Positions 21 to 62,938 of a stretch of 64,000 nt of DNA are shown here, in pieces. The notes below the pieces were generated by a model, which did not search any database, had not been told where the DNA came from, and saw only the letters and a list, made by a program, of their open reading frames with translations. Source of the DNA: Dehalococcoidia bacterium. Lineage in GTDB: Bacteria; Chloroflexota; Dehalococcoidia; Lucifugimonadales; UBA3495. The stretch is from NCBI GenBank assembly GCA_965201145.1, contig CBDAVT010000002.1, positions 2,203,380 through 2,267,379 of the forward strand, written 5' to 3'. Position numbers and translations under genes: made by a program. How positions within the stretch are numbered: position 1 is the first letter of the stretch; every line of letters starts with the position of its first letter.

Positions 21-203
21 CAGGGCTATCGCATATGAAAAAATTTCAGGCTCAGAACGGAACTTTCCGATGTTTTGGCGGCGCTTTACTGGGTAATCAA
101 CATCAAAACCAACGGTTTAAGTCTTAAATTACCCAAATTTAGCAGTTAAAAACGGAGATTTACCCGTCAATTGGCCTCTTAAATTCCATATGCGATAGCC
201 CTG
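21..203 (+). mobile_element. 183-bp MITE-like element, copy 1 (variant A)
   Basis: Starts CAGGGCTATCGCATATG and ends with its exact reverse complement (17-bp TIR). Flanked by a direct 10-bp duplication TAGGAAGCCC (11-20 and 204-213). No credible internal ORF. Confidence 0.9.
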
Positions 204-9524: not shown

Positions 9525-9941
9525 CTAGCGCCAGGCGGCGTGGTACATAACTTCGATCAGGTTGCCGTCCGGGTCCCGGAGGAAGCCGGCCAGCTTGCCG
9601 ATGTCATTCAACTTCGGTTCACGGCCCGGCTCGAAGTCGATTCCTTCCTGCCGTAAATTGGACAGCCAGGCGTCCCAGTCCTCCACCTCGACGGCGAAAT
9701 GGTTGGTAGGATGGGGCTGGGGATTGGCCTCGACGTGAAGATGCAGTTCCGTATTGCCCAGCTTCAGATAGCGGGGGCCGTCCTCGGTCCATTCGGCGCC
9801 GAAGGCCCGGGCGTACCAGTCCTGACTGCGGGCCACGTCGCTGGTTTCCACATTGGTATGCTGAATCATACTGACCTTGATGCTGCCCTGGGTAAACGCG
9901 GGTATGTAGGGATTGCGTTCCGGCATAATGCTTACCTCCAC
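9525..9941 (-). CDS. VOC (glyoxalase/bleomycin-resistance/dioxygenase) family protein
   Basis: 138-aa ORF. Has the VOC-like pattern HTNVETSDVARSQDWYARAFG...HFAVEVEDWDAW...LRDPDGNLIEV. Confidence 0.7.
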   Translation of the reverse strand: MEVSIMPERNPYIPAFTQGSIKVSMIQHTNVETSDVARSQDWYARAFGAEWTEDGPRYLKLGNTELHLHVEANPQPHPTNHFAVEVEDWDAWLSNLRQEGIDFEPGREPKLNDIGKLAGFLRDPDGNLIEVMYHAAWR

Positions 9942-10172
9942 TCCAATTATGCGCTGGGCGGCCCAGGCCCGGGGAAAACGGCTGTCCTCTGGGCCGTTGC
10001 GGGTCGCCCCAAATATATTACAAGGGGACGGAAGCGGTCAAACTGGCCGGTGACCGACGGGATTTGATTGCCGGGAAGGGCCGTGCTAGACTGCGGGCAG
10101 AGGCAAAGATGAGGAAGTAGAATAAATGATGGTTAATGCTGGTTCGTACAACGGTGGTTATGGTAAATAATG

Positions 10173-11949
10173 CTAATTTCCTGAATCCCGGTCGCCTTGC
10201 TCGGAGACGTGTCGAAATATTTGCTCATGGGCATACTCTTGAGCCTCGAACAAATCAACCAAATCTCTAATACTATTAACGTACAATCTCTTGTTATCGG
10301 CATTGTTAATCCTTAACTCTTCCAGTGTCAGCTTATTCCGCTTAATTCCGTTGCAAGTACGGTGGAGTAATGCCAGATTATAGAGTTCATCATTTCCTTG
10401 CATCCCTTCATTTGCTTTCCTGGCCCGGATGTGGTCAACTTCCAGCAGGGTATCATCCAGAGTTCCGTTGGGCCGGTAGGGTTTGTAGCCGCAACCCCAA
10501 CAGACCGGGCCAAATCGGTCCATCAGTAGCTTCTTGGCTTCCTCTTTGGGTATGCGCCCGGACCATGTAGAGGATTGTGATGGCAGTTTCTGCCCTTTCT
10601 TACGTTGTGAGATGTTGTAGAAAGGAGCGGGATCTATATCAGTACGCTTGGGCAATTGATCTGGGCCAATAGTATATGAAGTTGACTGTTGCAGTTCGGT
10701 TTGATGTTCTCCTAACGCTTTGTGTGTGCTGTTGGTCGTGTCAGAAAGGGCAAAACCATTTAAGTAAAACCTCCGTTTGAGCATAGTCCACGCTCTATAT
10801 GCCATGTCGCAAGCCAACCATCTACGGTTTAGTCTTTCAGCTGCGATGGCAGTTGTAGCACACCCGGCAAATATGTCCAAAACAACGTCGCCAGGATTAC
10901 TAGAAACTCGTATAATACGCTCATAGAGGTCTAATGGCTTTTGCGTGGCGTACCCGGTTTCCTCCAGCCTCCTTTTAACCAGTTGGTAGGCATATAGCTG
11001 TTTAATGTCGCTCCAAACTGTAGATAGTGGAACACCTTTGGATTCATCTAAATATTGAGTTTCTGTATTACCGTTAGGTCGTTTCCTTGTACGGAAGCGG
11101 CGGCCATCACCGTCTTTGTAGATGAAACGTTCACTGACGTACTTGTCTGAGTATGGGAGATAGATAGGATTGCAGGGCTATCGCATATGAAAAAATTTCA
11201 GGCTCAGAACGGAACTTTCCGATGTTTTGGCGGCGCTTTACTGGGTAATCAACATCAAAACCAACGGTTTAAGTCTTAAATTACCCAAATTTAGCAGTTA
11301 AAAACGGAGATTTACCCGTCAATTGGCCTCTTAAAATCCATATGCGATAGCCCTGGATAGGATTGTAAGTATGTTTACCGCCATTCCTAGCGTAGAATAA
11401 AAGCGTATCATGCGCTTTGACCTGTTTTGCTCCCCCTGCTCTTCCTCCTGACGGCGTACCATAACTCCACACGATTTCGTTCACCATATTGTTCGCTCCG
11501 AACACGGCATCTAATAACATACGCAAATAGCTGTTCGCATGGCTGTTACAGTGAACATATATACTACCTGTATCCTTTAGTATGCGTCTGCACTCGATTA
11601 ATCGGACTGCCATAAAAGCAATGTATGCCGCTTCGTTATCAGTCGCGCACGCTTCGACAGCTTGGATTACAGCATGGATGGCAGGATAATCATCTTGTAT
11701 TCGCATCTTCCATGTCGGATGCACGTCATCGTCCCAGTTCCAAACGTCCTTTACTCGTGTCTCTCCAATACCTTCGTTATGAGCGACACGATGCTCACGT
11801 GCTAAAGCCTTTTCTTCTTGTAGCTCAGCAGGTGTTATGGGGGGGTTAGGCTTTCTTTTGAACGTTTCATTAGCAGCAAATGGTGGGTCTATGGCAATAA
11901 GGTCAACGCACTCGTTGTTAAGGGACCGAAGGAACGTTAAGTTATCCAT
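10173..11949 (-). pseudogene. DNA methyltransferase (N4/N6, DPPF motif) fused to a C-terminal HNH nuclease domain, interrupted by a MITE
   Basis: N-terminal part has IAIDPPF (motif IV). After the MITE the same frame continues (YLPYSDKYVSERF...VLDIFAGCATT, motif I). The C-terminus has HNH-like EVDHIRARK...LALLHRTCNGIKRNK. Removing 11173-11355 plus one TSD restores one 527-aa ORF. Confidence 0.85.
11173..11355 (+). mobile_element. 183-bp MITE-like element, copy 2 (variant A)
   Basis: Same TIRs. 10-bp TSD GATAGGATTG (11163-11172 and 11356-11365). Lies inside the methyltransferase coding sequence. Confidence 0.9.
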
Positions 11950-12241
11950 TATCGCTAGGGTGCGGTTAGCTACGTTTAAGTTTCCATAACCACCGTTGTG
12001 CGAACCAAAAGCGCCCCCGGGTGGTGGGAGTTTTCGGGGTTATTGCATTGCTGGCTTTGGGCCGGGGCGTCAGCGCAGCTCGCAAGCATCCGCCGGGGGA
12101 AGGGGAGTCGCTCAATAAGATGTAACTCCCGTACACTTTCAATTCCCCCGGCGGACTGTAGTTTCGGCTAAGCAGCGGCGGTGGAACCGGAGACGCCACA
12201 GCTTCACGATTCAAGCTGAACCCATAACCCTGGGCCTGCCG

Positions 12242-12661
12242 TCAGGCGTCGATATTCATGGCCTTGAGGCCGATGGCGGCCAGCTCTTCGTCCCGGGCCA
12301 GGTAGCCGCCGACGCCGATGCCGCCCATGATGACTCCGTCTTTGGACTTGACTACCACGCCGCCGATGCCGGGGGTCAGGTTGGGGTCGCCGTAGTCGCT
12401 GACGGTGCGGCCCCGTTCCTTCAACTGCTCTCCGTGAGGGCCGGTATCCATACCCATAACGGCGGCGGTGTAGGCCTTGCGGAAGGCGTGCCGGCGGGCG
12501 TAGAGCCGCACGTTGTCCATCTGGGCGTAGGCAACCATATTGCCGGCATCGTCCACGATGGCAATAGCCACCGGCATCACCACCGGACTGGTGGCCTCTG
12601 CAATGATGGCCTGCATGGCGGCCTGGGCCTGCTCAAAATCAATGAAGGGTTTTTCGGACAT
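12242..12661 (-). CDS. GlcG/HbpS-like heme-binding protein (DUF336)
   Basis: 139-aa ORF with the family-typical IAIVDDAGN...A..KA.TA and GGIGVGG motifs. Confidence 0.75.
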   Translation of the reverse strand: MSEKPFIDFEQAQAAMQAIIAEATSPVVMPVAIAIVDDAGNMVAYAQMDNVRLYARRHAFRKAYTAAVMGMDTGPHGEQLKERGRTVSDYGDPNLTPGIGGVVVKSKDGVIMGGIGVGGYLARDEELAAIGLKAMNIDA

Positions 12662-37461: not shown

Positions 37462-37908
37462 TCAAATCGGCGTGAAGAGCGTTTCCGAGGATATCTTCTG
37501 CTTTAGGACCCGGTTTATTTGACTGCGCTCTACGTTTGCATCCTCTTGTAAGCCAAGACAATGGATAATGCCATTGACATCGGCGCTAAGGCGAGCGCCT
37601 AGCGCAATTTTCAGGAGGCCGTCGCTTTGTTCGTTTACCTGATAAGAGTGAAAATGCACCGGGTCAGCCAATACTGCCGGGGTCTTTAAGTGCGAGAAAT
37701 CAAACACTCCACTCATATAGTCGAGTAATACATCCTGGATTACGAGTACAAGTTTCTTGTTCAGGTGTTCGAAGGTCTGACTTTTGTGGTGCATTTGCAC
37801 CAGTATTGTCTTCGCAGTCATTTTCCAGTTCATATCCTCGACTATCCGCGCCCAATCCTGGTATCTTCTGGTAGTGGCCTGGCCGAACAGTTCAAGTATT
37901 CGGTTCAT
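37462..37908 (-). CDS. putative type II restriction endonuclease partner (uncharacterised, possibly truncated)
   Basis: The ATG at 37908 overlaps the methyltransferase stop in ATGA. AT-rich like the methyltransferase gene. No nuclease motif recognised. A further ORF-like stretch follows in another frame downstream (about 37300-37460). Confidence 0.35.
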   Translation of the reverse strand: MNRILELFGQATTRRYQDWARIVEDMNWKMTAKTILVQMHHKSQTFEHLNKKLVLVIQDVLLDYMSGVFDFSHLKTPAVLADPVHFHSYQVNEQSDGLLKIALGARLSADVNGIIHCLGLQEDANVERSQINRVLKQKISSETLFTPI

Positions 37909-39041
37909 ACCGCCAATCCACAACGTTCCAGGGACATATCGAGATACTCTCGCGAAATGTCAATGCCAACCGATTTACGGTCGAGCTGATTCGCAACGTA
38001 CAGGGTAGTTCCAGTACCTGCAAAGGGGTCTAAGACAACTCCTCCCAGAGGGCAAGTAGCCAATATTGGTATCAGACAGAGATCAACCGGATACGGGGCG
38101 AAATGCAGTTTCCGGTCTTGGGTATCTTCGGGAATTATGTCCCACACATCGGCCGGCTTTGCTCCTTTGGGATGGTATTGCAGAAAGTAGAACCCTTTAT
38201 CTTTTAGCTCCTTGGCGCGTCCTGACAACTTGCTGCTGTCTGAATGGGTAGTCCGCTGCTGGCCGCGTATAATCATTCTAAAGTCGGCCAACTGACCTTC
38301 GGCTACCGCAGTAAGCATTTTGTCGAGCCCTCGGAAAGCAGCGTCCTTTTCGCTGGCGCTAAGCGCTGTAGAAAGCTCAATCTGACGACGGTATCTCACC
38401 CCTGAAACACCGGTGGCTGAAACTACAGCGCCATTTACAACTTTGCTCTTTTGCGGATTTGCTCTGATTGCATCGACATCGTAATAATACTTTGGCTGCT
38501 TCACAAAGTGAAATATATTCTCGTGGACGTTGCCCAGTCGGTCTTTGGTTGTATCCCTCCCTCCCTTTACTTTGTTCCAAATCACGCTGTTCCTGAGTAT
38601 CCATCCCTGGTTATCGGTCAATTCGAAGGCGACACGCCACGGGATGCCCATCAACTGCTTGGAATGGTATGAATCGCCTAGGTTCAGCCAGAATGACCCT
38701 TTTGGCTTCAATATTCGTTTCAATTCAATAAAGACCGCTGCCAGGTTGCTTACATAGTCGTTATAGTCCGGCTCCAGCCCGATGCCGCCATCGGAATATT
38801 CGCGCTTGTTCCAGTAAGGCGGCGAGGTTACAGCGCAATCCACGGATTCATTCGGTAAATGCGCCAGCACTTCGGAGGTGTTTCCCAGAAGCGTCAACGG
38901 GAGAGTAGAGGGGCCTTGCAGATATTCCACAAACGCTTCGGCATAGGCGTCAGTTACTACCCTTGGCGCACAGTCCTTTGGACCTTGCGCTGTAGGGTGA
39001 AATGACATCTGAAAACCGCAGCCATCGGGTTTCATCGTCAA
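37905..39041 (-). CDS. DNA methyltransferase, beta class (SPPY motif; N4-C or N6-A)
   Basis: 378-aa ORF. Motif IV DCAVTSPPYW precedes motif I VLDPFAGTGTT. GAGGAG RBS. AT-richer than its flanks (28/60 G+C at 38401-38460). Confidence 0.85.
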   Translation of the reverse strand: MTMKPDGCGFQMSFHPTAQGPKDCAPRVVTDAYAEAFVEYLQGPSTLPLTLLGNTSEVLAHLPNESVDCAVTSPPYWNKREYSDGGIGLEPDYNDYVSNLAAVFIELKRILKPKGSFWLNLGDSYHSKQLMGIPWRVAFELTDNQGWILRNSVIWNKVKGGRDTTKDRLGNVHENIFHFVKQPKYYYDVDAIRANPQKSKVVNGAVVSATGVSGVRYRRQIELSTALSASEKDAAFRGLDKMLTAVAEGQLADFRMIIRGQQRTTHSDSSKLSGRAKELKDKGFYFLQYHPKGAKPADVWDIIPEDTQDRKLHFAPYPVDLCLIPILATCPLGGVVLDPFAGTGTTLYVANQLDRKSVGIDISREYLDMSLERCGLAV

Positions 39042-41453: not shown

Positions 41454-41636
41454 CAGGGCTATCGCATATGGATTTTAAGAGGCCAATTGACGGGTAAATC
41501 TCAGTTTTTAACTGCTAAATTTGGGTAATTTAAGACTTAAACCGTTGGTTTTGATGTTGATTACCCAGTAAAGCGCCGCCAAAACATCGGAAAGTTCCGT
41601 TTTGATCCTGAAAATTTTTCATATGCGATAGCCCTG
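41454..41636 (-). mobile_element. 183-bp MITE-like element, copy 3 (variant B, inverted)
   Basis: Same TIRs. 10-bp TSD GGGAAGGGGT (41444-41453 and 41637-41646). Lies about 220 nt upstream of the SBP start. Confidence 0.9.
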
Positions 41637-44041: not shown

Positions 44042-46786
44042 CTACTCCGACAGCCCGGCATACCTCTGGCCGGTAACCGACGGCTCCCGGGACAAGTCCC
44101 GGCGGATAGCGGCAACGGTTTCCTCCTCTACTCCCAAAGCTGCGCATACCGCCGAATTCAAAGCCTGTCGCACCGGGTCGTTGTTCATCTGCGGCAGGGG
44201 CAGCATAACTGAGTTGGCATATCGATCATAGGCTGCGGCCAGGGTGGACACCACTTCTTCGCCGATGGCGGAGAAGTGGGGAACTAGTAATTTGCGCAGA
44301 TCATCAATGGAGAAACGAGGATAAGACGGTACTCGATTTGAGCGATTGCCCAGCATAACAAGTACACCGATAGATGAGTTCAGGAAAGTGCAAATAGCTT
44401 TTTCCAGCCGCTCTTTCTCCGGTTCGACTGCCGTCAAGTTGCAAGGTGACCAGGATGATCCTACCACTGGAGTATCCAGTCTGACTGCCAAAGCTTTAAC
44501 TGTATTGAGGCGCATCCGGTTCGGTAACAGAAATTTGCTACGCTGCTGCCAATATTTGGACGCCAAATGTTCTTTCTTTGGTTTAGTCGCAAGGTTGGTA
44601 TCAGGCAAAGCTACCATGCTTTGGGTAACTTCCGTCTGGTGTTCCCACAAAGCAACCCTGGACTCGCCACTCGGCATTGGGGATTTTATGAAAGCATCCC
44701 GAATTCTCCGACCTTCCGGTCCAACGTCTGAAATCTCGCCAAGAGCGACTACCTGGAACAGTTTATTGTTTCTCAAAGCGAGAAAACTGCTGCAAAGATA
44801 GGGAGAAAGAAACTGGACTCCACCCCAATCACCGGCCCCAATCAAGTGTTCGGGCCACTCCTGGACCGTGCCGTAACCCTGTGTTTCAACGGTTCCATTC
44901 AGAATTGCCCGGGCGACATTCAGAGAATTGGCGGGAGCAGCCGGGTTGAGCGCCAGATTTATCACTCGGGTCGGCGGCTTCGGTCCTTTGGCCGCGTTCC
45001 AGCGCCGGCAAACCAGGAGCATTTCCCCAATGGTGGTGTTTTCGGAGAAATAGATACGTTCCGGGTCGTGGGAAGCTACGATAAATTCGACGTGAAACTT
45101 GCTGGCTAGATAACACCTCATTTGACTTCCTGAAACATCTGTAGCAGCTATCATCGGTAAGACCGTAGCAATTACACCTTCATCGGTCTTGCAAATATAT
45201 TCCGCTAGGAACAGGAACGCACCACTGTTGCCGGCCATATACGTGGGTTTATTGTAAAACAGGTCCTTTTCCCGGTCTTTGATTCTCTTTTCGTCCGCGG
45301 GGCTGAATTGGTCGTGACGCAGGCTGTCCCGGGTAAAGGGCGGGTTCATAATCACCAAATCGGCCGGTTCGGCCTGGGACATTTCCTCACCGCTGTCCAC
45401 CTGACTCACCGCTTGGGTGGCATTAGGCCAGGGCATCAGCCGGGGCTGCTGGTCCAGAAATTCTAGCGAACCGAGATATGCCTTCCGGTTCTGGCCCACG
45501 CCAAGAAAGGCGCGGCCAATTTTCATATTGCGGAAACGGGTAGCCGGGGATAATAGCCCCAAGGTGGTAGCCGCCATGTGGGTGGCAGTCAAATTCACGT
45601 CATAGCCGGTCAGCACCCGTTCAATCAATGCGGCGGCCAGATTTCCGTCGTCCCGCGCCTGGGGCGCCAAGTCCCGGATACGCTCGGCCGCAGCCATCAG
45701 CAGCGTTCCGGTGCCGCAGGCCGGGTCGGTAATCCTCAATTTGGCAATGGCCTCAGAATCTTGCCAGTCGCACATAGTTTCAGTGATGGCTAAAGCGGCC
45801 AGCAGGGTTGCCGCCGGGGTAGTAGTGTAAAAGGAGCCATCGTAACGGGCGGTATCCAGGACGGTATGAAATACGGGCCCCAGCAAGTCGTGGCGCAGAC
45901 TGGCGATGTTGCCCGATACGGCCAGGGCCGCCGCGGCCGTATCCCGAAGGGCGGCGGTAAAAGCGGAGTCTTGCGGGCAGGACAGGAGCGCTGCCCGGCC
46001 CGTCTCAAATATCGGCTTGTAATCCAGCGCGAGAATCAGGTCCCAGGCAGCGTTGAAAGCGCCTACCGGATCATCGGCGGCGGCGCACTGCTGCGCCAGA
46101 TCCGGCGGCCAGGGTCCGGAGAAGGGCGCGTTGGTTCGATTGTCCACCTCAGGGCGCAGGTCGTTTCGGTGGGCGTCCAGCCGGGAATGGAACATGACGG
46201 CGGTGGCGACTACCAGCAAGGCTCGTTTGGCTGGCGCATCCCAGGGATTTCGAACCACCCGACCTTTCCTGGTCTGGCGGGGCAAGTCCAGAGCCCGGGC
46301 AAAAGCTTCCTTCTGCGCTTCGCTTAACCGGATTACCGCTCCGTCCAGGCTGCTGGACCGGGCCGCCGCCGTGGCATCCGGGTCGCCCAGTTGAGCCGGC
46401 GTCAGCCGAATGACCGATACCAGCCCCCGGATGTCGCCCTCTACCCATTCCGCCGCCGCCCCTTTGCCGTCCCGAACCGTCCAGACTAATTGAGCATTGG
46501 GCAGAGATTCCCTGGTGGTATCGTCGGGATAGCAGACGGCAACGGCGCATTGAGCCAATCCTTGCTTCAATCGGGCGTCGGCATCTTCGACAGCTTCCCG
46601 ACGTTTAGCCGTACTTTGTCCGTGTTCCGCTTCTACGGCAATGACGGCCGGCCCGATGCGTACTTCCACATCCATCCGGAGGTTGCCTGGATAGATAACC
46701 TCCGGTTTTGCGGCAAGGCCGTACTTCTGACTAAACTCGTCAGCCAACTGGATGTTCAGAACGGATTCCCATTGCCTGGTAGTCAT
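44042..46786 (-). CDS. 914-aa N6-adenine DNA methyltransferase-domain protein with long N- and C-terminal extensions (type IIG/IIL-like candidate)
   Basis: Motif I ITDPACGTGTLL and motif IV VIMNPPF (gamma-class order). About 330 aa lie upstream and about 400 aa downstream. G+C is mosaic (38/60 at 46201-46260 versus 29/60 at 44581-44640). Confidence 0.65.
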   Translation of the reverse strand: MTTRQWESVLNIQLADEFSQKYGLAAKPEVIYPGNLRMDVEVRIGPAVIAVEAEHGQSTAKRREAVEDADARLKQGLAQCAVAVCYPDDTTRESLPNAQLVWTVRDGKGAAAEWVEGDIRGLVSVIRLTPAQLGDPDATAAARSSSLDGAVIRLSEAQKEAFARALDLPRQTRKGRVVRNPWDAPAKRALLVVATAVMFHSRLDAHRNDLRPEVDNRTNAPFSGPWPPDLAQQCAAADDPVGAFNAAWDLILALDYKPIFETGRAALLSCPQDSAFTAALRDTAAAALAVSGNIASLRHDLLGPVFHTVLDTARYDGSFYTTTPAATLLAALAITETMCDWQDSEAIAKLRITDPACGTGTLLMAAAERIRDLAPQARDDGNLAAALIERVLTGYDVNLTATHMAATTLGLLSPATRFRNMKIGRAFLGVGQNRKAYLGSLEFLDQQPRLMPWPNATQAVSQVDSGEEMSQAEPADLVIMNPPFTRDSLRHDQFSPADEKRIKDREKDLFYNKPTYMAGNSGAFLFLAEYICKTDEGVIATVLPMIAATDVSGSQMRCYLASKFHVEFIVASHDPERIYFSENTTIGEMLLVCRRWNAAKGPKPPTRVINLALNPAAPANSLNVARAILNGTVETQGYGTVQEWPEHLIGAGDWGGVQFLSPYLCSSFLALRNNKLFQVVALGEISDVGPEGRRIRDAFIKSPMPSGESRVALWEHQTEVTQSMVALPDTNLATKPKKEHLASKYWQQRSKFLLPNRMRLNTVKALAVRLDTPVVGSSWSPCNLTAVEPEKERLEKAICTFLNSSIGVLVMLGNRSNRVPSYPRFSIDDLRKLLVPHFSAIGEEVVSTLAAAYDRYANSVMLPLPQMNNDPVRQALNSAVCAALGVEEETVAAIRRDLSREPSVTGQRYAGLSE

Positions 46787-48801: not shown

Positions 48802-48984
48802 CAGGGCTATCGCATATGAAAAATTTTCAGGATCAAAACGGAACTTTCCGATGTTTTGGCGGCGCTTTACTGGGTAATCAACATCAAAACCAACGGTTTA
48901 AGTCTTAAATTACCCAAATTTAGCAGTTAAAAACTGAGATTTACCCGTCAATTGGCCTCTTAAAATCCATATGCGATAGCCCTG
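48802..48984 (+). mobile_element. 183-bp MITE-like element, copy 4 (variant B)
   Basis: Same TIRs. 10-bp TSD GGCGGGGTGG (48792-48801 and 48985-48994). Lies in a divergent intergenic region. Confidence 0.9.
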
Positions 48985-50155: not shown

Positions 50156-51097
50156 ATGACCCTGACTGCAAATGTAGCAAATTGGAAATTCGACTATCGC
50201 TCTGATTATGTCGGCAACTCACTCATAATCCAGGCAAATTGTTTTGAATGGCTCAAAAGAATTCCCGAGAATAGTATTCACGCCTTCGTTACTGACCCAC
50301 CCTACGTAGTTAAGGAGTACGAAAGGGAGCAACTGGACAAAAGAGCTAACGGAAGTGGCGGAGTTTGGAGGATTCCACCGTCTTTCGATGGGCATTCCAG
50401 GGCGCCGTTGCCCCGGTTTACGGCTCTATCCCATAAGGAAAGGCAAGTTTTAACGGATTTCTTCACTGTTTGGGCCAGGCTGGCAGTGCGAGCGTTGTTG
50501 CCGGGAGGCCATGTGATTATTGCCAGCAATGCTTTTCTTTCGCAAGCCGTTTTTTCTGCTCTTATCGATGGTGGGTTGGAGTTTCGAGGTGAGTTAATCA
50601 GAGTTGTCCGTACTTTGCGCGGTGGAGACCGACCCAAAAACGCCGAAGAGGAATTTTCAAACGTGTCTTCACTCCCACGTGGATGCTACGAACCTTGGGG
50701 AATTTTTCGTAAAACTTTGCCGATAGATATGACCCTACGTGATTGCTTGCGTAAGTTTCAGACTGGCGGACTTCGCCGACTTCCCGACGGGAAACCTTTC
50801 GAGGACCTGATCTTCAGTGAAAGGACTCCGAAGAAGGAAAAAGAAATCTCAAACCACCCTAGTTGCAAACCCCAATCCTTTATGCGTCAAGTTGTTTATG
50901 CTGTGCTACCGATGGGCGAAGGTATCATATGCGACCCATTTATGGGTAGTGGGAGCACCTTGGCTGCCGCTGAAGCTGTAGGAGCTTGTTGCGTTGGCCT
51001 AGAGACACGTCAAGAATACTACGATCTAAGCCGCATAGCCATTCCGAGATTAGCTGCTATGGGCACAAAGCTAAATCCTGCACTATTGCTACTGTAG
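50156..51097 (+). CDS. DNA methyltransferase, beta class (DPPY motif; probably N6-adenine)
   Basis: 313-aa ORF. Motif IV FVTDPPYV precedes motif I CDPFMGSGST. AT-rich (26/60 G+C at 50161-50220). Confidence 0.85.
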   Translation: MTLTANVANWKFDYRSDYVGNSLIIQANCFEWLKRIPENSIHAFVTDPPYVVKEYEREQLDKRANGSGGVWRIPPSFDGHSRAPLPRFTALSHKERQVLTDFFTVWARLAVRALLPGGHVIIASNAFLSQAVFSALIDGGLEFRGELIRVVRTLRGGDRPKNAEEEFSNVSSLPRGCYEPWGIFRKTLPIDMTLRDCLRKFQTGGLRRLPDGKPFEDLIFSERTPKKEKEISNHPSCKPQSFMRQVVYAVLPMGEGIICDPFMGSGSTLAAAEAVGACCVGLETRQEYYDLSRIAIPRLAAMGTKLNPALLLL

Positions 51098-53564: not shown

Positions 53565-53639
53565 GCCCTCACCCCTCACCCCGCTCCCCCAGGGAGAGGG
53601 GCCGGGGTGAGGGCTTCCCCCTGGCCGGGAGTGAGGGCC
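53565..53639. repeat. compound REP-like palindrome
   Basis: GGCCCTCACCCCTCACCCCGCTCCCCCAGGGAGAGGGGCCGGGGTGAGGGC...GGGAGTGAGGGCC. Confidence 0.7.
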
Positions 53640-53713
53640 GCCGCGACAGTACCCAAGTCGGCAGCGATGGGTTAAAATAGTGCTACTATCCAGAACCCGG
53701 GAGGCCCTATACC

Positions 53714-54175
53714 ATGGACATGGGCGACATCGCCGCCATTGCTGCCATCTCCACCGTATTTCTCGCCATAGTCGGACTTTCGGCCACGGCCATTTTCCGT
53801 ATCGGCAAACTGACCGAGGCCACGGACAGGATACCGGAAGAGTTCCGCGCCGAACTCCAGACCGTGGAAGCTCGCAACGAAGAACGCTTCCAGCGAGTAG
53901 ATGACCGTTTCCAGTATATGGAGGCCTTGAATGAAGAACGCTTCCGACGCATGGAAGAGCGTATGGAAGAACGCTTCCAGCGTATGGAAGAGCGTATGGA
54001 AGAACGCTTCCAGCGTATGGAAGATCTCATTCACCATAACGAGGAGTTAATTCGTTCCGAGAGTGAACGAATTCAGGGGCAGATTCTCATTTTGCAGCAA
54101 GCGATAATGACCCACTCCCACGACCAGGACGGCAACGTCATGTTTCGGGTTCCTATGCCTGATACTGAGGAATAG
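53714..54175 (+). CDS. N-terminally membrane-anchored coiled-coil protein with 11-residue EERFQRMEERM repeats
   Basis: 153-aa ORF. TM helix IAAIAAISTVFLAIVGLSATAIF. 33-bp DNA tandem repeat units at 53933, 53966 and 53999. Confidence 0.6.
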   Translation: MDMGDIAAIAAISTVFLAIVGLSATAIFRIGKLTEATDRIPEEFRAELQTVEARNEERFQRVDDRFQYMEALNEERFRRMEERMEERFQRMEERMEERFQRMEDLIHHNEELIRSESERIQGQILILQQAIMTHSHDQDGNVMFRVPMPDTEE

Positions 54176-54193
54176 TTCCGCCTGTTTGCAGAC

Positions 54194-54332
54194 GGCCCTC
54201 ACCCCTCTCCCCGGAAGCCCTCACCCCTAACCCCTCTCCCGCGAGGCGAGGGGGACTTTGGGCAAACTCTCCCCTCTCCTCCAGGGAGAGGGGCCGGGGG
54301 TGAGGGCTTCCCCCTGGCCGGGGGTGAGGGCC
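54194..54332. repeat. cluster of REP-like palindromes
   Basis: Three nested or adjacent copies of the CCCTCACCCC / CCCCTCTCC ... GGAGAGGGGCCGGGGGTGAGGG motif, between two convergent genes. Confidence 0.7.
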
Positions 54333-54447
54333 GCCGGGGAGAGAAGCCAGGGCAGAGGGCAAAACCAGGCCCGGTTGGAAGTTTACGCTTCCAACCGGGC
54401 CTTTTCCCGTTTGCCGTTTAGATACGCCGGCCGTTGGCCGGCTGCAA

Positions 54448-60540: not shown

Positions 60541-60570
60541 TCCACTGGGCCAAGGGGAGCGAAACAAAAT

Positions 60571-60608
60571 TCCCCTCTCCTCGCGGGAGAGGGGCCGGGG
60601 GTGAGGGC
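60571..60608. repeat. REP-like palindrome
   Basis: TCCCCTCTCCTCGCGGGAGAGGGGCCGGGGGTGAGGGC. Confidence 0.7.
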
Positions 60609-60628
60609 TTCCTGGGAAGGGGTAAGGG

Positions 60629-61048
60629 CTAGTCCAAAGTAAGCACCAGGGTCGGCAGGGCGCTAACCGTCGCAATCACCATAGCCGCCGAGCCGCCAAC
60701 TATGGCATAAAAGAGCCGGTCAATGCGGGAATTAACACTCTGTTGCAAGGTTTCAATCCGGGCGGCCATCTCGCTCTGCAAGGAATCGATCCGGGAGGTC
60801 ATCTCGCTTTGTAAGGTATCAATCCGGGAGGTCACGCCATCGATCCGGGCGTCCACACTTTGTTGCAGGGAGATTATCAGGGTATTCGTCGCCCGCTGGT
60901 CCTCCCGCAGCTCGGACACTGCCGTCTCCACCGCCGTCAACCGGGCATTGGTTTCCCGATGGTTGGCCTGCATCTCCCCCCGCACCTCCAACACCGAGTG
61001 TTCCACCGCCGTCATCCGTTCCGACAAGTCATCCGTAGTTGTTACCAT
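60629..61048 (-). CDS. tail-anchored coiled-coil protein, tandem paralog 2
   Basis: Same N-terminus, RBS (GGAGGAAAGGAAACT) and C-terminal TM as the others. Different set of internal modules. Confidence 0.7.
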   Translation of the reverse strand: MVTTTDDLSERMTAVEHSVLEVRGEMQANHRETNARLTAVETAVSELREDQRATNTLIISLQQSVDARIDGVTSRIDTLQSEMTSRIDSLQSEMAARIETLQQSVNSRIDRLFYAIVGGSAAMVIATVSALPTLVLTLD

Positions 61049-61079
61049 AGTTTCCTTTCCTCCGTAAGTTCTGCCAACC

Positions 61080-61107
61080 ACTATACCGGATACCGGCCCA
61101 TTGTCAA
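61080..61107 (-). promoter_or_regulatory. sigma70-type promoter of paralog 2
   Basis: Minus-strand TTGACA-N16-TATAGT. The MITE copy 5 boundary is 19 bp upstream of the -35. Confidence 0.6.
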
Positions 61108-61126
61108 TCCACCGCAGTACCCGGCC

Positions 61127-61309
61127 CAGGGCTATCGCATATGGATTTTAAGAGGCCAATTGACGGTTAAATCTCCGTTTTTAACTGCTAAATTTGGGTA
61201 ATTTAAGACTTAAACCGTTGGTTTTGATGTTGATTACCCAGTAAAGCGCCGCCAAAACATCGGAAAGTTCCGTTCTGAGCCTGAAATTTTTTCATATGCG
61301 ATAGCCCTG
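61127..61309 (-). mobile_element. 183-bp MITE-like element, copy 5 (variant A, inverted)
   Basis: Same TIRs. TSD (A)GTACCCGGCC (61116/61117-61126 and 61310/61311-61320). Confidence 0.9.
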
Positions 61310-61317
61310 AGTACCCG

Positions 61318-61433
61318 GCCCTCACCCCTAGCCCCTCTCCCACGAGGCGAAGGGGAACTTTGGCGGATAAGCCGGCTACTGCCCCAAACATAAACTCCCC
61401 TTTCCCCCAGGGAGAGGGGCCGGGGGTGAGGGC
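61318..61433. repeat. compound REP-like doublet
   Basis: CCCTCACCCCTAGCCCCTCTCCC...spacer...CCCCTTTCCCCCAGGGAGAGGGGCCGGGGGTGAGGGC. The same doublet occurs at 62185-62297 and 54215-54310. Confidence 0.7.
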
Positions 61434-61477
61434 TTTCGGGACGGGGCCGAGCTTTCGGGAGGAGAAGGGGGTAGGAG

Positions 61478-61915
61478 CTAGTCCAAAGTAAGAACCAGGG
61501 TCAGCAGGGCGCTAACCGTCGCAATCACCATAGCCGCCGAGCCGCCAACAATGGCATAAAAGAGCCGGTCAATGCGGGAATTAACACTCTGTTGCAGGGA
61601 GATTATCAGACCATTCGTCGCCCTCTGGTCCTCCCGCAGCTCGGACACCGCCGTCTCCACCGCCGTCAACCGGGCGTTGGTTTCCTGCAAATCACCCCGT
61701 ACCTCCAATACCGAGTGTTCCACCGCCGTCATCCGGGCATTGGTTTCCCTCTGGTTGGCCTGCATCTCCCCGCGCAACTCCACCAAGCCCGTCTCCACCG
61801 CCGTCATCCGAGCGTTGGTTTCCCGATGGTTGGCCTGCATCTCCCCGCGCAACTCCACCAGGCCCGTCTCCACCGCCGTCATCCGTTCCGACAAATCATC
61901 CGTAGTTGTTACCAT
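61478..61915 (-). CDS. tail-anchored coiled-coil protein, tandem paralog 3
   Basis: Same termini. Contains two TGLVELRGEMQAN(H/Q)RETNARMTAVE modules. Confidence 0.7.
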   Translation of the reverse strand: MVTTTDDLSERMTAVETGLVELRGEMQANHRETNARMTAVETGLVELRGEMQANQRETNARMTAVEHSVLEVRGDLQETNARLTAVETAVSELREDQRATNGLIISLQQSVNSRIDRLFYAIVGGSAAMVIATVSALLTLVLTLD

Positions 61916-61946
61916 AGCTTCCTTTCCTCCGTAAGCTCTGCCAACC

Positions 61947-61974
61947 ACTATACCTGATACCGGTCCATTGTCAA
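61947..61974 (-). promoter_or_regulatory. sigma70-type promoter of paralog 3
   Basis: Minus-strand TTGACA-N16-TATAGT. The MITE copy 6 boundary is 19 bp upstream of the -35. Confidence 0.6.
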
Positions 61975-61993
61975 TCCACCGCAGTACCCGACC

Positions 61994-62176
61994 CAGGGCT
62001 ATCGCATATGAAAAAATTTCAGGCTCAGAACGGAACTTTCCGATGTTTTGGCGGCGCTTTACTGGGTAATCAACATCAAAACCAACGGTTTAAGTCTTAA
62101 ATTACCCAAATTTAGCAGTTAAAAACGGAGATTTACCCGTCAATTGGCCTCTTAAATTCCATATGCGATAGCCCTG
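61994..62176 (+). mobile_element. 183-bp MITE-like element, copy 6 (variant A)
   Basis: Same TIRs. 10-bp TSD GTACCCGACC (61984-61993 and 62177-62186). Confidence 0.9.
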
Positions 62177-62184
62177 GTACCCGA

Positions 62185-62297
62185 CCCTCACCCCTAACCC
62201 CTCTCCCGCGAGGCGAGGGGGACTTTGGCGGATAAGCCGGCTACTGCCCCAAACACAAACTCCCCTCTCCCTGGGGGAGAGGGGCCGGGGGTGAGGG
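62185..62297. repeat. compound REP-like doublet
   Basis: CCCTCACCCCTAACCCCTCTCCCGCGAGGCGAGGGGG...CCCCTCTCCCTGGGGGAGAGGGGCCGGGGGTGAGGG. Confidence 0.7.
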
Positions 62298-62340
62298 TTT
62301 TCCGGACGGGGCCGGGTTTTCGGGAGGAAGGGGGTAAGCG

Positions 62341-62790
62341 CTAGTCCAAAGTAAGAACCAGGGTCAGCAGGGCGCTAACCGTCGCAATCACCATAGCCGC
62401 CGAGCCGCCAACGATGGCATAGAAGAGCCGGCCAATTCGGGAATTAACACTCTGTTGTAAGGTATCAATCCGGGCGGTCATCTCGCTTTGTAAGGTATCA
62501 ATCCGGGAGGTCACGCCATCGATCCGGGCGTCCACACTTTGTTGCAGGGAGATTATCAGGGCATTCGTCGCCCGCTGGTCCTCCCGCAGTTCGGACACTG
62601 CCGTCTCCACCGCCGTCATCCGGGCATTGGTTTCCCGATGGTTGGCCTGCATCTCCCCGCGCAACTCCACCAGGCCCGCCTCCACCGCCGTCAACAGAGC
62701 ATTGGTTTCCCGCAAATCACTCCGCAGCTCCACCAGGCCCGTTTCCACCGCCGTCATCCGTTCCGACAAATCATCCGTAGTAGTTACCAT
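62341..62790 (-). CDS. tail-anchored coiled-coil protein, tandem paralog 4
   Basis: Same termini. Its module order differs again. Confidence 0.7.
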   Translation of the reverse strand: MVTTTDDLSERMTAVETGLVELRSDLRETNALLTAVEAGLVELRGEMQANHRETNARMTAVETAVSELREDQRATNALIISLQQSVDARIDGVTSRIDTLQSEMTARIDTLQQSVNSRIGRLFYAIVGGSAAMVIATVSALLTLVLTLD

Positions 62791-62821
62791 AGTTTCCTTT
62801 CCTCCGTAAGTTCTGCCAACC

Positions 62822-62849
62822 ACTATACCTGATAGCGGCCCATTGTCAA
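62822..62849 (-). promoter_or_regulatory. sigma70-type promoter of paralog 4 (unoccupied MITE target next to it)
   Basis: Minus-strand TTGACA-N16-TATAGT. The single-copy GTACCCGGCC at 62859-62868 is the empty-site equivalent of the copy 5/6 targets. Confidence 0.6.
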
Positions 62850-62865
62850 TCCACCGGGGTACCCG

Positions 62866-62938
62866 GCCCTCACCCCTCTCCCGCGAGGCGAGGGGTGTTT
62901 CTTTTTCGTCACCCCTCCCTCAGGAAGAGGGCAGGGGA
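62866..62938. repeat. REP-like palindromes
   Basis: GCCCTCACCCCTCTCCCGCGAGGCGAGGGG ... CACCCCTCCCTCAGGAAGAGGGCAGGGGAG. Confidence 0.6.

Follow-up and report, generated by a model that had tools for sequence, protein, structure and literature searches.

A foreign DNA methyltransferase-HNH gene enclosed by a 27-nt inverted repeat in a Dehalococcoidia genome

The interrupted gene and its foreign origin

The DNA considered here is a stretch of 64,000 nucleotides from a Dehalococcoidia bacterium (contig CBDAVT010000002.1, positions 2,203,380 to 2,267,379 of the forward strand), hereafter called the window, in which a gene encoding a DNA methyltransferase fused to an HNH nuclease is enclosed by the two arms of an inverted repeat, in the spacer between an HbpS/GlcG-like gene (glcG-like below) and a gene of the VOC/glyoxalase family (VOC below; Table 1). 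This gene (PF01555, PF01844) is the only coding content between the arms, to which a nested miniature inverted-repeat transposable element (MITE) is added. A preliminary description of this DNA had counted one gene between the repeats, which holds as far as coding content is concerned, but this gene is not intact: the MITE splits it into two open reading frames (ORFs) of the minus strand, 11281-11949 and 10173-10880.

The composition of the segment, together with synteny in relatives, shows it to be a horizontally acquired, foreign insertion. The G+C content is 0.46 over both halves of the gene against 0.60-0.64 in the flanking genes and spacers, in agreement with the drop inside the repeats that had been described before, and the G+C content at third codon positions (GC3) is 0.45, while four neighbouring genes (VOC, glcG-like, molybdopterin oxidoreductase and aldehyde dehydrogenase) have values of 0.78-0.83. 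Comparison of orthologous loci, which the preliminary description had proposed as a means of defining the empty site, found five related genomes (L013, L034, L096, L097 and L098) in which the glcG-like gene is directly followed by the VOC gene, with no methyltransferase, but did not place the boundaries at base resolution. The spacers of these five genomes are 105-538 bp long, differ from one another and contain various small hairpin repeats and MITEs; since only the coding ends of the L013, L034 and L095-L099 spacers can be aligned with the window, the insertion is proven by synteny while its edges cannot be placed. As a promoter-like site of the VOC gene and a weak terminator-like hairpin flank the island, it can be located downstream of the glcG-like gene and ahead of the VOC promoter. 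The relatives carry TTGACC-N17-TATAGT upstream of VOC, which matches the promoter-like site of the window; terminator-like sites are no commoner in the window than in shuffled sequences. On the glcG-like side of the cassette, the host spacer also contains a perfect 13-nt inverted repeat (TCCGCCGGGGGAA ... TTCCCCCGGCGGA; 12089-12101 and 12143-12155, with a 41-nt loop) that is unique in the window and has no Rfam match.

When the MITE is deleted together with one copy of its target-site duplication (exactly 10 nt only), a single frame of 540 codons is restored. The restored protein matches the N6/N4 DNA methylase family PF01555 with 129 bits and, at its C-terminus, the HNH family PF01844 with 25.7 bits (cut-off 21.4). 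Its methylase part is of the beta class, the nearest solved relatives being M.MboIIA, M.RsrI, CcrM and Type III Mod subunits, and the best models of a defence library are those of Type II and Type III methyltransferases. More than 4,000 relatives make up the family of this fusion; the best match is 76% identical, and the relatives examined come mostly from Chloroflexota-type metagenome assemblies. No full-length relative of the fusion was found in phage, plasmid and viral-contig collections, the phage and plasmid collections containing relatives of the methylase domain only (about 28-39% identity), and searches with the protein among metagenome contigs and with the family alignment among viral contigs confirmed no related locus.

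The usual N-terminus of the family is M-G/S-x-L-N-V-x-N-R-T-L-A-I/V-M-D-N, and the window reads in frame Y-G-N-L-N-V-A-N-R-T-L-A-I-M-D-N, its codons TAT-GGA-AAC-TTA-AAC being aligned with ATG-GGC-AAT-CTG-AAC of the homolog locus L100. The family start codon has therefore been lost, TAT (11988-11986) standing in frame in place of ATG. An ATG lies one base out of frame at 11987-11985, and the loss came about either by deletion of one G from ATGGGAAAC or by base substitutions. With its start codon gone and its frame split by the MITE, the gene is dead. The closest homolog (P0001, 76% identity, in L001) likewise begins at the internal Met, and directly upstream of it (L001, 5800-5990) tandem arrays of (GGAAAGC)n, (GGCAACC)n and (AGCCAACC)n stand where the N-terminal codons of the family would be; these arrays could be a slippage-prone tract beside a methylase-nuclease gene.

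The MITE is present in six copies in the window (21-203, 11173-11355, 41454-41636, 48802-48984, 61127-61309 and 61994-62176), which are about 98-100% alike and each have their own 10-bp target duplication (possibly 11 bp at 61127). Small size, absence of coding sequence, terminal inverted repeats, target duplications and multiple copies are thus all found, as the MITE class demands. Contigs from other samples end within the MITE from either side, and thereby confirm the two junctions in the gene. Three of the copies lie directly 5' of a G+C-rich ...CCCTCACCCC... repeat, a position that suggests a target preference. L012 and L013 contain related elements whose ends have diverged; one of these lies between the glcG-like and VOC genes of L013. 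No parent insertion sequence (IS) of the MITE was found in the window or in the related loci examined; MITE-like ends that form a 2-kb pair in L013 were considered and rejected, as a host phosphate-binding gene lies between them. The CAGGG ends and duplications of about 10 bp are reminiscent of the ISAs1 family, from which the MITE may derive.

Table 1. Positions in the window of the cassette, its inverted repeat, the nested MITE and the host features on either side
Feature	Position	Strand	Remarks
VOC/glyoxalase-family gene	9525-9926	-	Flanking host gene; 133 amino acids from ATG
Promoter-like site of VOC	10012-10041	-	TTGACC-18-TATATT; marks host DNA on the left
AT-rich stretch	10105-10139		35 nt with a G+C content of 31%; adjoins the outer edge of the left arm
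Left arm of the 27-nt inverted repeat	10140-10166		TGGTTCGTACAACGGTGGTTATGGTAA; 6 nt past the methyltransferase-HNH stop codon; 44% G+C
3' part of the gene	10173-11172	-	AdoMet-binding motif region, HNH domain and stop codon (10173-10175)
MITE target-site duplication, copy 1	11163-11172		GATAGGATTG
MITE inside the gene	11173-11355		183 bp; terminal inverted repeats of 17 nt, without mismatch (CAGGGCTATCGCATATG); the window has six copies
MITE target-site duplication, copy 2	11356-11365		GATAGGATTG
5' part of the gene	11366-11949	-	Starts at the internal ATG (Met14 in family numbering) and stops where the MITE was inserted; includes the DPPF motif region of the N6/N4 methylase domain
Remnant of the 13 N-terminal codons of the family	11950-11988	-	In frame; YGNLNVANRTLAI (family MGNLNVANRTLAI); without start codon
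Right arm of the 27-nt inverted repeat	11981-12007		TTTCCATAACCACCGTTGTGCGAACCA; 48% G+C
Weak terminator-like hairpin	12014-12030	-	3' of the glcG-like gene; its T-run touches the outer edge of the right arm
HbpS/GlcG-like gene	12242-12661	-	Flanking host gene; 139 amino acids

The inverted repeat and its place in the insert

The repeat had been reported in the preliminary description as a 23-mer, GGTTCGTACAACGGTGGTTATGG, at 10141-10163, with a partner on the opposite strand at 11984-12006, and this stands: the arms match at 22 of 23 positions, no such match arose in 100 shuffles, and the sequence does not occur elsewhere in the window at up to three mismatches. The distances to the gene had also been given correctly, 9 nt separating the 23-mer from the stop codon and 34 nt from the ATG at 11949. 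Extension by one base outward and three inward gives 27 nt with 25 matches (Table 1). As a control, we scored the best flanking inverted repeat for 200 random intervals of 1.78 kb from the window; the score was at most 13 in 198 of them and 21 and 22 in the remaining two, the cassette scoring 21. The repeat is unique in the window and closely surrounds one methyltransferase-HNH gene. The arms and the junctions are all found, at 99.9-100% identity, in independent short-read assemblies from other samples, which rules out an assembly artefact.

Both arms belong to the insert, since their G+C is cassette-like (Table 1; 61-64% in the adjacent spacers) and since their sequence is absent from the spacers of the relatives and from 1.57 Mb of related DNA. 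On the right side the shift in G+C falls at the outer edge of the arm. That arm also covers the ancestral start region of the gene, TAT-GGA-AA on the minus strand at 11988-11981 occupying the place of the family start ATG-GGN-AAY, which argues for inserted DNA rather than a host hairpin.

Some smaller observations concern the arms. Translated in the methylase frame, the right arm reads GSHNGGYG. The left arm is crossed by a mini-ORF of 14 codons (MMVNAGSYNGGYGK*, 10126-10170, plus strand), which is preceded by a GAGGAAG motif at a distance of 8 nt. The left arm also resembles a stretch upstream of rep in a Col156-type plasmid (NZ_CP032517.1, 1594-1621; 25 of 28 positions, or 31 of 36 with a 2-nt gap; E 0.2-2), which opens a small ORF MGTYNGSYGKW...; we rejected this match as probably due to chance, as the stretch is single-copy there and outside any repeat, and the listed matches inspected all come from one replicon family.

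Mobility and competing explanations

We tentatively read the segment as a compact, repeat-bounded restriction-modification-like unit, of the kind described by Furuta, Abe and Kobayashi (2010), that was inserted once and has since decayed; this reading is a possible one, with odds somewhat below even. The island is a single gene, whose product joins a beta-class N6/N4 DNA methyltransferase to an HNH nuclease and which can be called a restriction-modification-like selfish gene; in one Dehalococcoidia lineage it landed in the spacer that separates the glcG-like gene from the VOC promoter. The 27-nt repeat arrived with the foreign DNA and most likely represents the ends of a compact transposon-like unit. 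We infer that these ends served in recombination and that the mover acted in trans, as a transposase or as some other end-recognising enzyme. The family start codon was lost, the 183-bp MITE later split the gene, and what is left is an immobile relic in one fixed arrangement in the population.

Furuta et al. found restriction-modification genes or orphan methylase genes inside imperfect inverted repeats of at least 20 bp that occur in the inserted unit alone and are missing from the genome with the empty site, with no linked transposase or integrase, and left undecided whether the mover is the gene product or a trans-acting transposase (PMC2853133). The unit of the window likewise has a methylase gene inside inverted repeats of more than 20 bp, which have no further copy in the window and are not found in L013, L034 and L096-L098, and no linked transposase or integrase gene: no transposase or recombinase domain was found in window ORFs of at least 220 amino acids or in genes within 10 kb (precomputed Pfam assignments for genes up to 10 kb away, Pfam scans of larger ORFs elsewhere in the window). 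It differs from the described units by its single, fused methyltransferase-HNH cargo, by the overlap of the repeat with the start region and by the inactivation of the gene. In the two resolved cases of Furuta et al. the repeats match at 26 of 26 and 60 of 65 positions and are accompanied by 8-bp target duplications (PMC2853133); by contrast, no target duplication was detected for the window unit, and a short duplication matching the empty site was seen in 2 of the 24 cases of that study.

The preliminary description had likened the segment to a mobile insertion cassette (MIC), a class whose members are usually multi-copy and have target duplications. Part of this comparison holds, the segment being a foreign insertion that includes terminal inverted repeats around a passenger gene and has no transposase, but there is no target duplication, and neither a cognate IS nor a second copy was found in the 64 kb or in 1.57 Mb of relatives. 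MICs, for which the ISsaga paper cites the IS231-MIC231 elements of Bacillus cereus, have their ends in common with an intact IS of the same genome, which mobilises them (PMC3129680), and Tn3-type MICs are described for Xanthomonas (PMC4337579). Membership of the MIC class is not established: two of four defining features are present, one is absent, and the fourth, a cognate IS or further copies of the ends, was looked for in the source genome within these 64 kb. Homing by the HNH domain, which had also been proposed, is disfavoured. Like free-standing HNH homing endonuclease genes, this gene carries an HNH domain and is solitary and horizontally mobile; unlike them, as they enter one conserved target via flanking homology, its homologs occupy four unrelated contexts with no single conserved target, the nuclease is fused to a complete methyltransferase, and neither viral-contig relatives nor full-length phage relatives were found. 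Rfam and tRNA scans of the window gave no matches, so there is no tRNA-linked integration. An integron cassette was rejected because the arms are symmetric and 1.8 kb apart, unlike attC, which is found at one end, and elements of the IS200/IS605 and IS91 types, which have no terminal inverted repeats, were rejected because a repeat is present.

Several results weigh against a repeat-bounded unit. As the preliminary description had stated, there is no target-site duplication, which we confirmed for every boundary up to 6 nt from the arms (exact repeats of at least 4 nt, or 7 nt with one mismatch); the sole flanking identity is AAAG at 10105-10108 and 12008-12011, and this applies only when the AT-rich stretch beyond the left arm is taken as insert. 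As that 35-nt stretch may be foreign too, the left arm may be subterminal. A second copy of the arm was found neither in the window (up to 8 mismatches) nor in the 1.57 Mb of related loci (up to 7 mismatches), and neither yielded an IS with the same ends. The search for other occurrences of the 23-mer that had been suggested found it unique in the window, and in its exact form (with Y at the mismatch) it gave no match in 185,579 representative genomes, JGI metagenome contigs or IMG/VR. Among 12 independent Logan contigs no empty, inverted or excised allele was seen, all being collinear with the window. Neither inverted nor direct repeats flank the five homolog loci (64-76% identity); the repeat is therefore no trait of the family, and the DNA upstream of these homologs is unrelated to the right arm. 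Moreover, at its inner end the repeat includes a duplicate of the cargo's first codons, which is odd for captured ends and fits an inverted duplication of the 5' end.

This last point leads to an alternative that we consider rather less likely, a one-off illegitimate integration in which a linear foreign fragment with the gene was joined into the spacer through microhomology or a template switch, and about 27 nt of its 5' end, comprising upstream DNA and the first codons, were copied in inverted orientation beside its 3' end; the repeat would then be a scar and would never have been a transposon end. Such an event explains the missing duplication, the uniqueness of the arms wherever they were searched and their overlap with the first codons almost as well as a repeat-bounded unit does, and it is also consistent with the composition of the arms, which is that of the cassette, with the inclusion of the gene's own start region and with the homologs that have no repeats. 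The AAAG on either side could be the junction microhomology if the AT-rich stretch is insert, though a 4-nt match is weak evidence. To our knowledge, inverted duplications lying 1.8 kb apart are not commonly documented for bacterial illegitimate recombination, which counts against a scar. The genome-wide over-representation of repeat-flanked restriction-modification genes, which was found to be significant, also suggests a recurrent mechanism rather than a single accident (PMC2853133). The methyltransferase-HNH protein could also have mobilised its own gene, its HNH nuclease cutting at the 27-nt arms of an autonomous restriction-modification-type transposon whose repeat-free homologs would be domesticated or decayed. 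The arm would then overlap the gene's own start as in many insertion sequences, and the protein would use a nuclease fold not known for cut-and-paste transposition; we regard this as the least probable of all the explanations weighed here.

Three further explanations each conflict with one or more direct tests. The gene may have entered the centre of a host palindrome, a spacer hairpin of about 54 bp whose half-stems became the arms, and the glcG-VOC spacer of the relatives is indeed a hotspot for small hairpin repeats and MITEs, in a window rich in palindromic repeats. This, like the recombination at a palindromic site that the preliminary description had listed, is disfavoured and quite improbable: the arms have a foreign composition whereas the host hairpin repeats that can be seen are G+C-rich like the host spacers, the right arm lies on the ancestral gene start, no such palindrome is found in the spacers of the relatives, and neither a copy nor a half-copy of the arm occurs elsewhere in the window or in the 1.57 Mb of relatives. 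Slightly less probable still is an invertible segment, flipped by a site-specific invertase and switched on when co-oriented with glcG and VOC, which would make the methylase phase-variable. The length of the repeat around a complete gene would suit such a switch, and the gene is co-directional with both neighbours; however, all 12 independent contigs have the same orientation, no recombinase was found in the 64 kb, the homologs have no repeats and the gene is now broken. It is also very improbable that the repeat acts in the transcript, the 3' arm pairing with the 5' arm so that the start is hidden and translation of a toxic nuclease-methylase is limited, for which the fold-back inhibition of hok mRNA is a comparable case. 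The mRNA strand is complementary at 25 of 27 positions and the ancestral start codon lies within the 5' arm, but the two mismatches (C-A and A-A) allow no wobble, none of the five homolog loci has a comparable complementarity between its 5' and 3' sides, and the gap of 1.8 kb lets translation begin before the 3' arm is transcribed.

Homologs, neighbouring methylase islands and significance

The neighbours of the homologs are MFS and aldehyde oxidase genes in L001, YceI and PanC genes in L002 and L102-L104, TP_methylase and unknown genes in L100, and PGDH and luciferase genes in L101, whereas those of the window gene are glcG and VOC. The GC3 of the homologs (0.57-0.74) is nearer to the composition of their own hosts, and the window copy looks like a recent arrival. 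P0002 (L002, 6001-7641) and P0019 (L102-L104, 3001-4620), from different genomes, both lie between a YceI and a pantoate ligase gene, which indicates that the family is often kept vertically. A VapB antitoxin gene is near both; L002 also has a PIN-domain gene and a second N6/N4 methylase gene nearby, and L102-L104 a gene for a BsaWI-like restriction enzyme. In this lineage the gene appears to be stably inherited within a small defence and addiction cluster.

Besides the island gene, the 64 kb contain three DNA methyltransferase genes (37905-39041 and 44042-46786 on the minus strand, 50156-51097 on the plus strand), with a GC3 of 0.54, 0.63 and 0.46 respectively against about 0.75-0.80 for the host, and none of them has flanking repeats. 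One lies between the permease and binding-protein genes of a peptide ABC transporter operon, and the low-GC island around 50156-51097 extends to about 51900 and may include a partner gene. Because these three further low-GC3 islands share the window, methyltransferase genes have been acquired here repeatedly. The window also has many copies of a G+C-rich palindromic repeat (CCCCTCTCCC..GGGAGAGGGGCCGGGGGTGAGGGC), in the regions 53565-54363 and 60560-62910, and a region in which a unit of about 860 bp is repeated about three times and which contains two MITE copies in opposite orientation; similar G+C-rich repeats are present in the spacers of L095 and L096.

This kind of unit has already been described by Furuta et al. 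(2010) and the mechanism of its mobilisation is unproven; the significance of the finding is modest. The movement of repeat-flanked restriction-modification units concerns a poorly understood class whose mechanism has been open since 2010, and if the arms are recombination ends, the window would provide a Chloroflexota example, with a fused methylase-nuclease as cargo, of such units that lack a transposase. The locus is a record of three successive events at one intergenic hotspot, namely the acquisition of a selfish methylase-nuclease gene, the loss of its start codon and its knock-out by a MITE, and the four low-GC3 methylase islands within 64 kb indicate that this genome repeatedly takes up methyltransferase genes.

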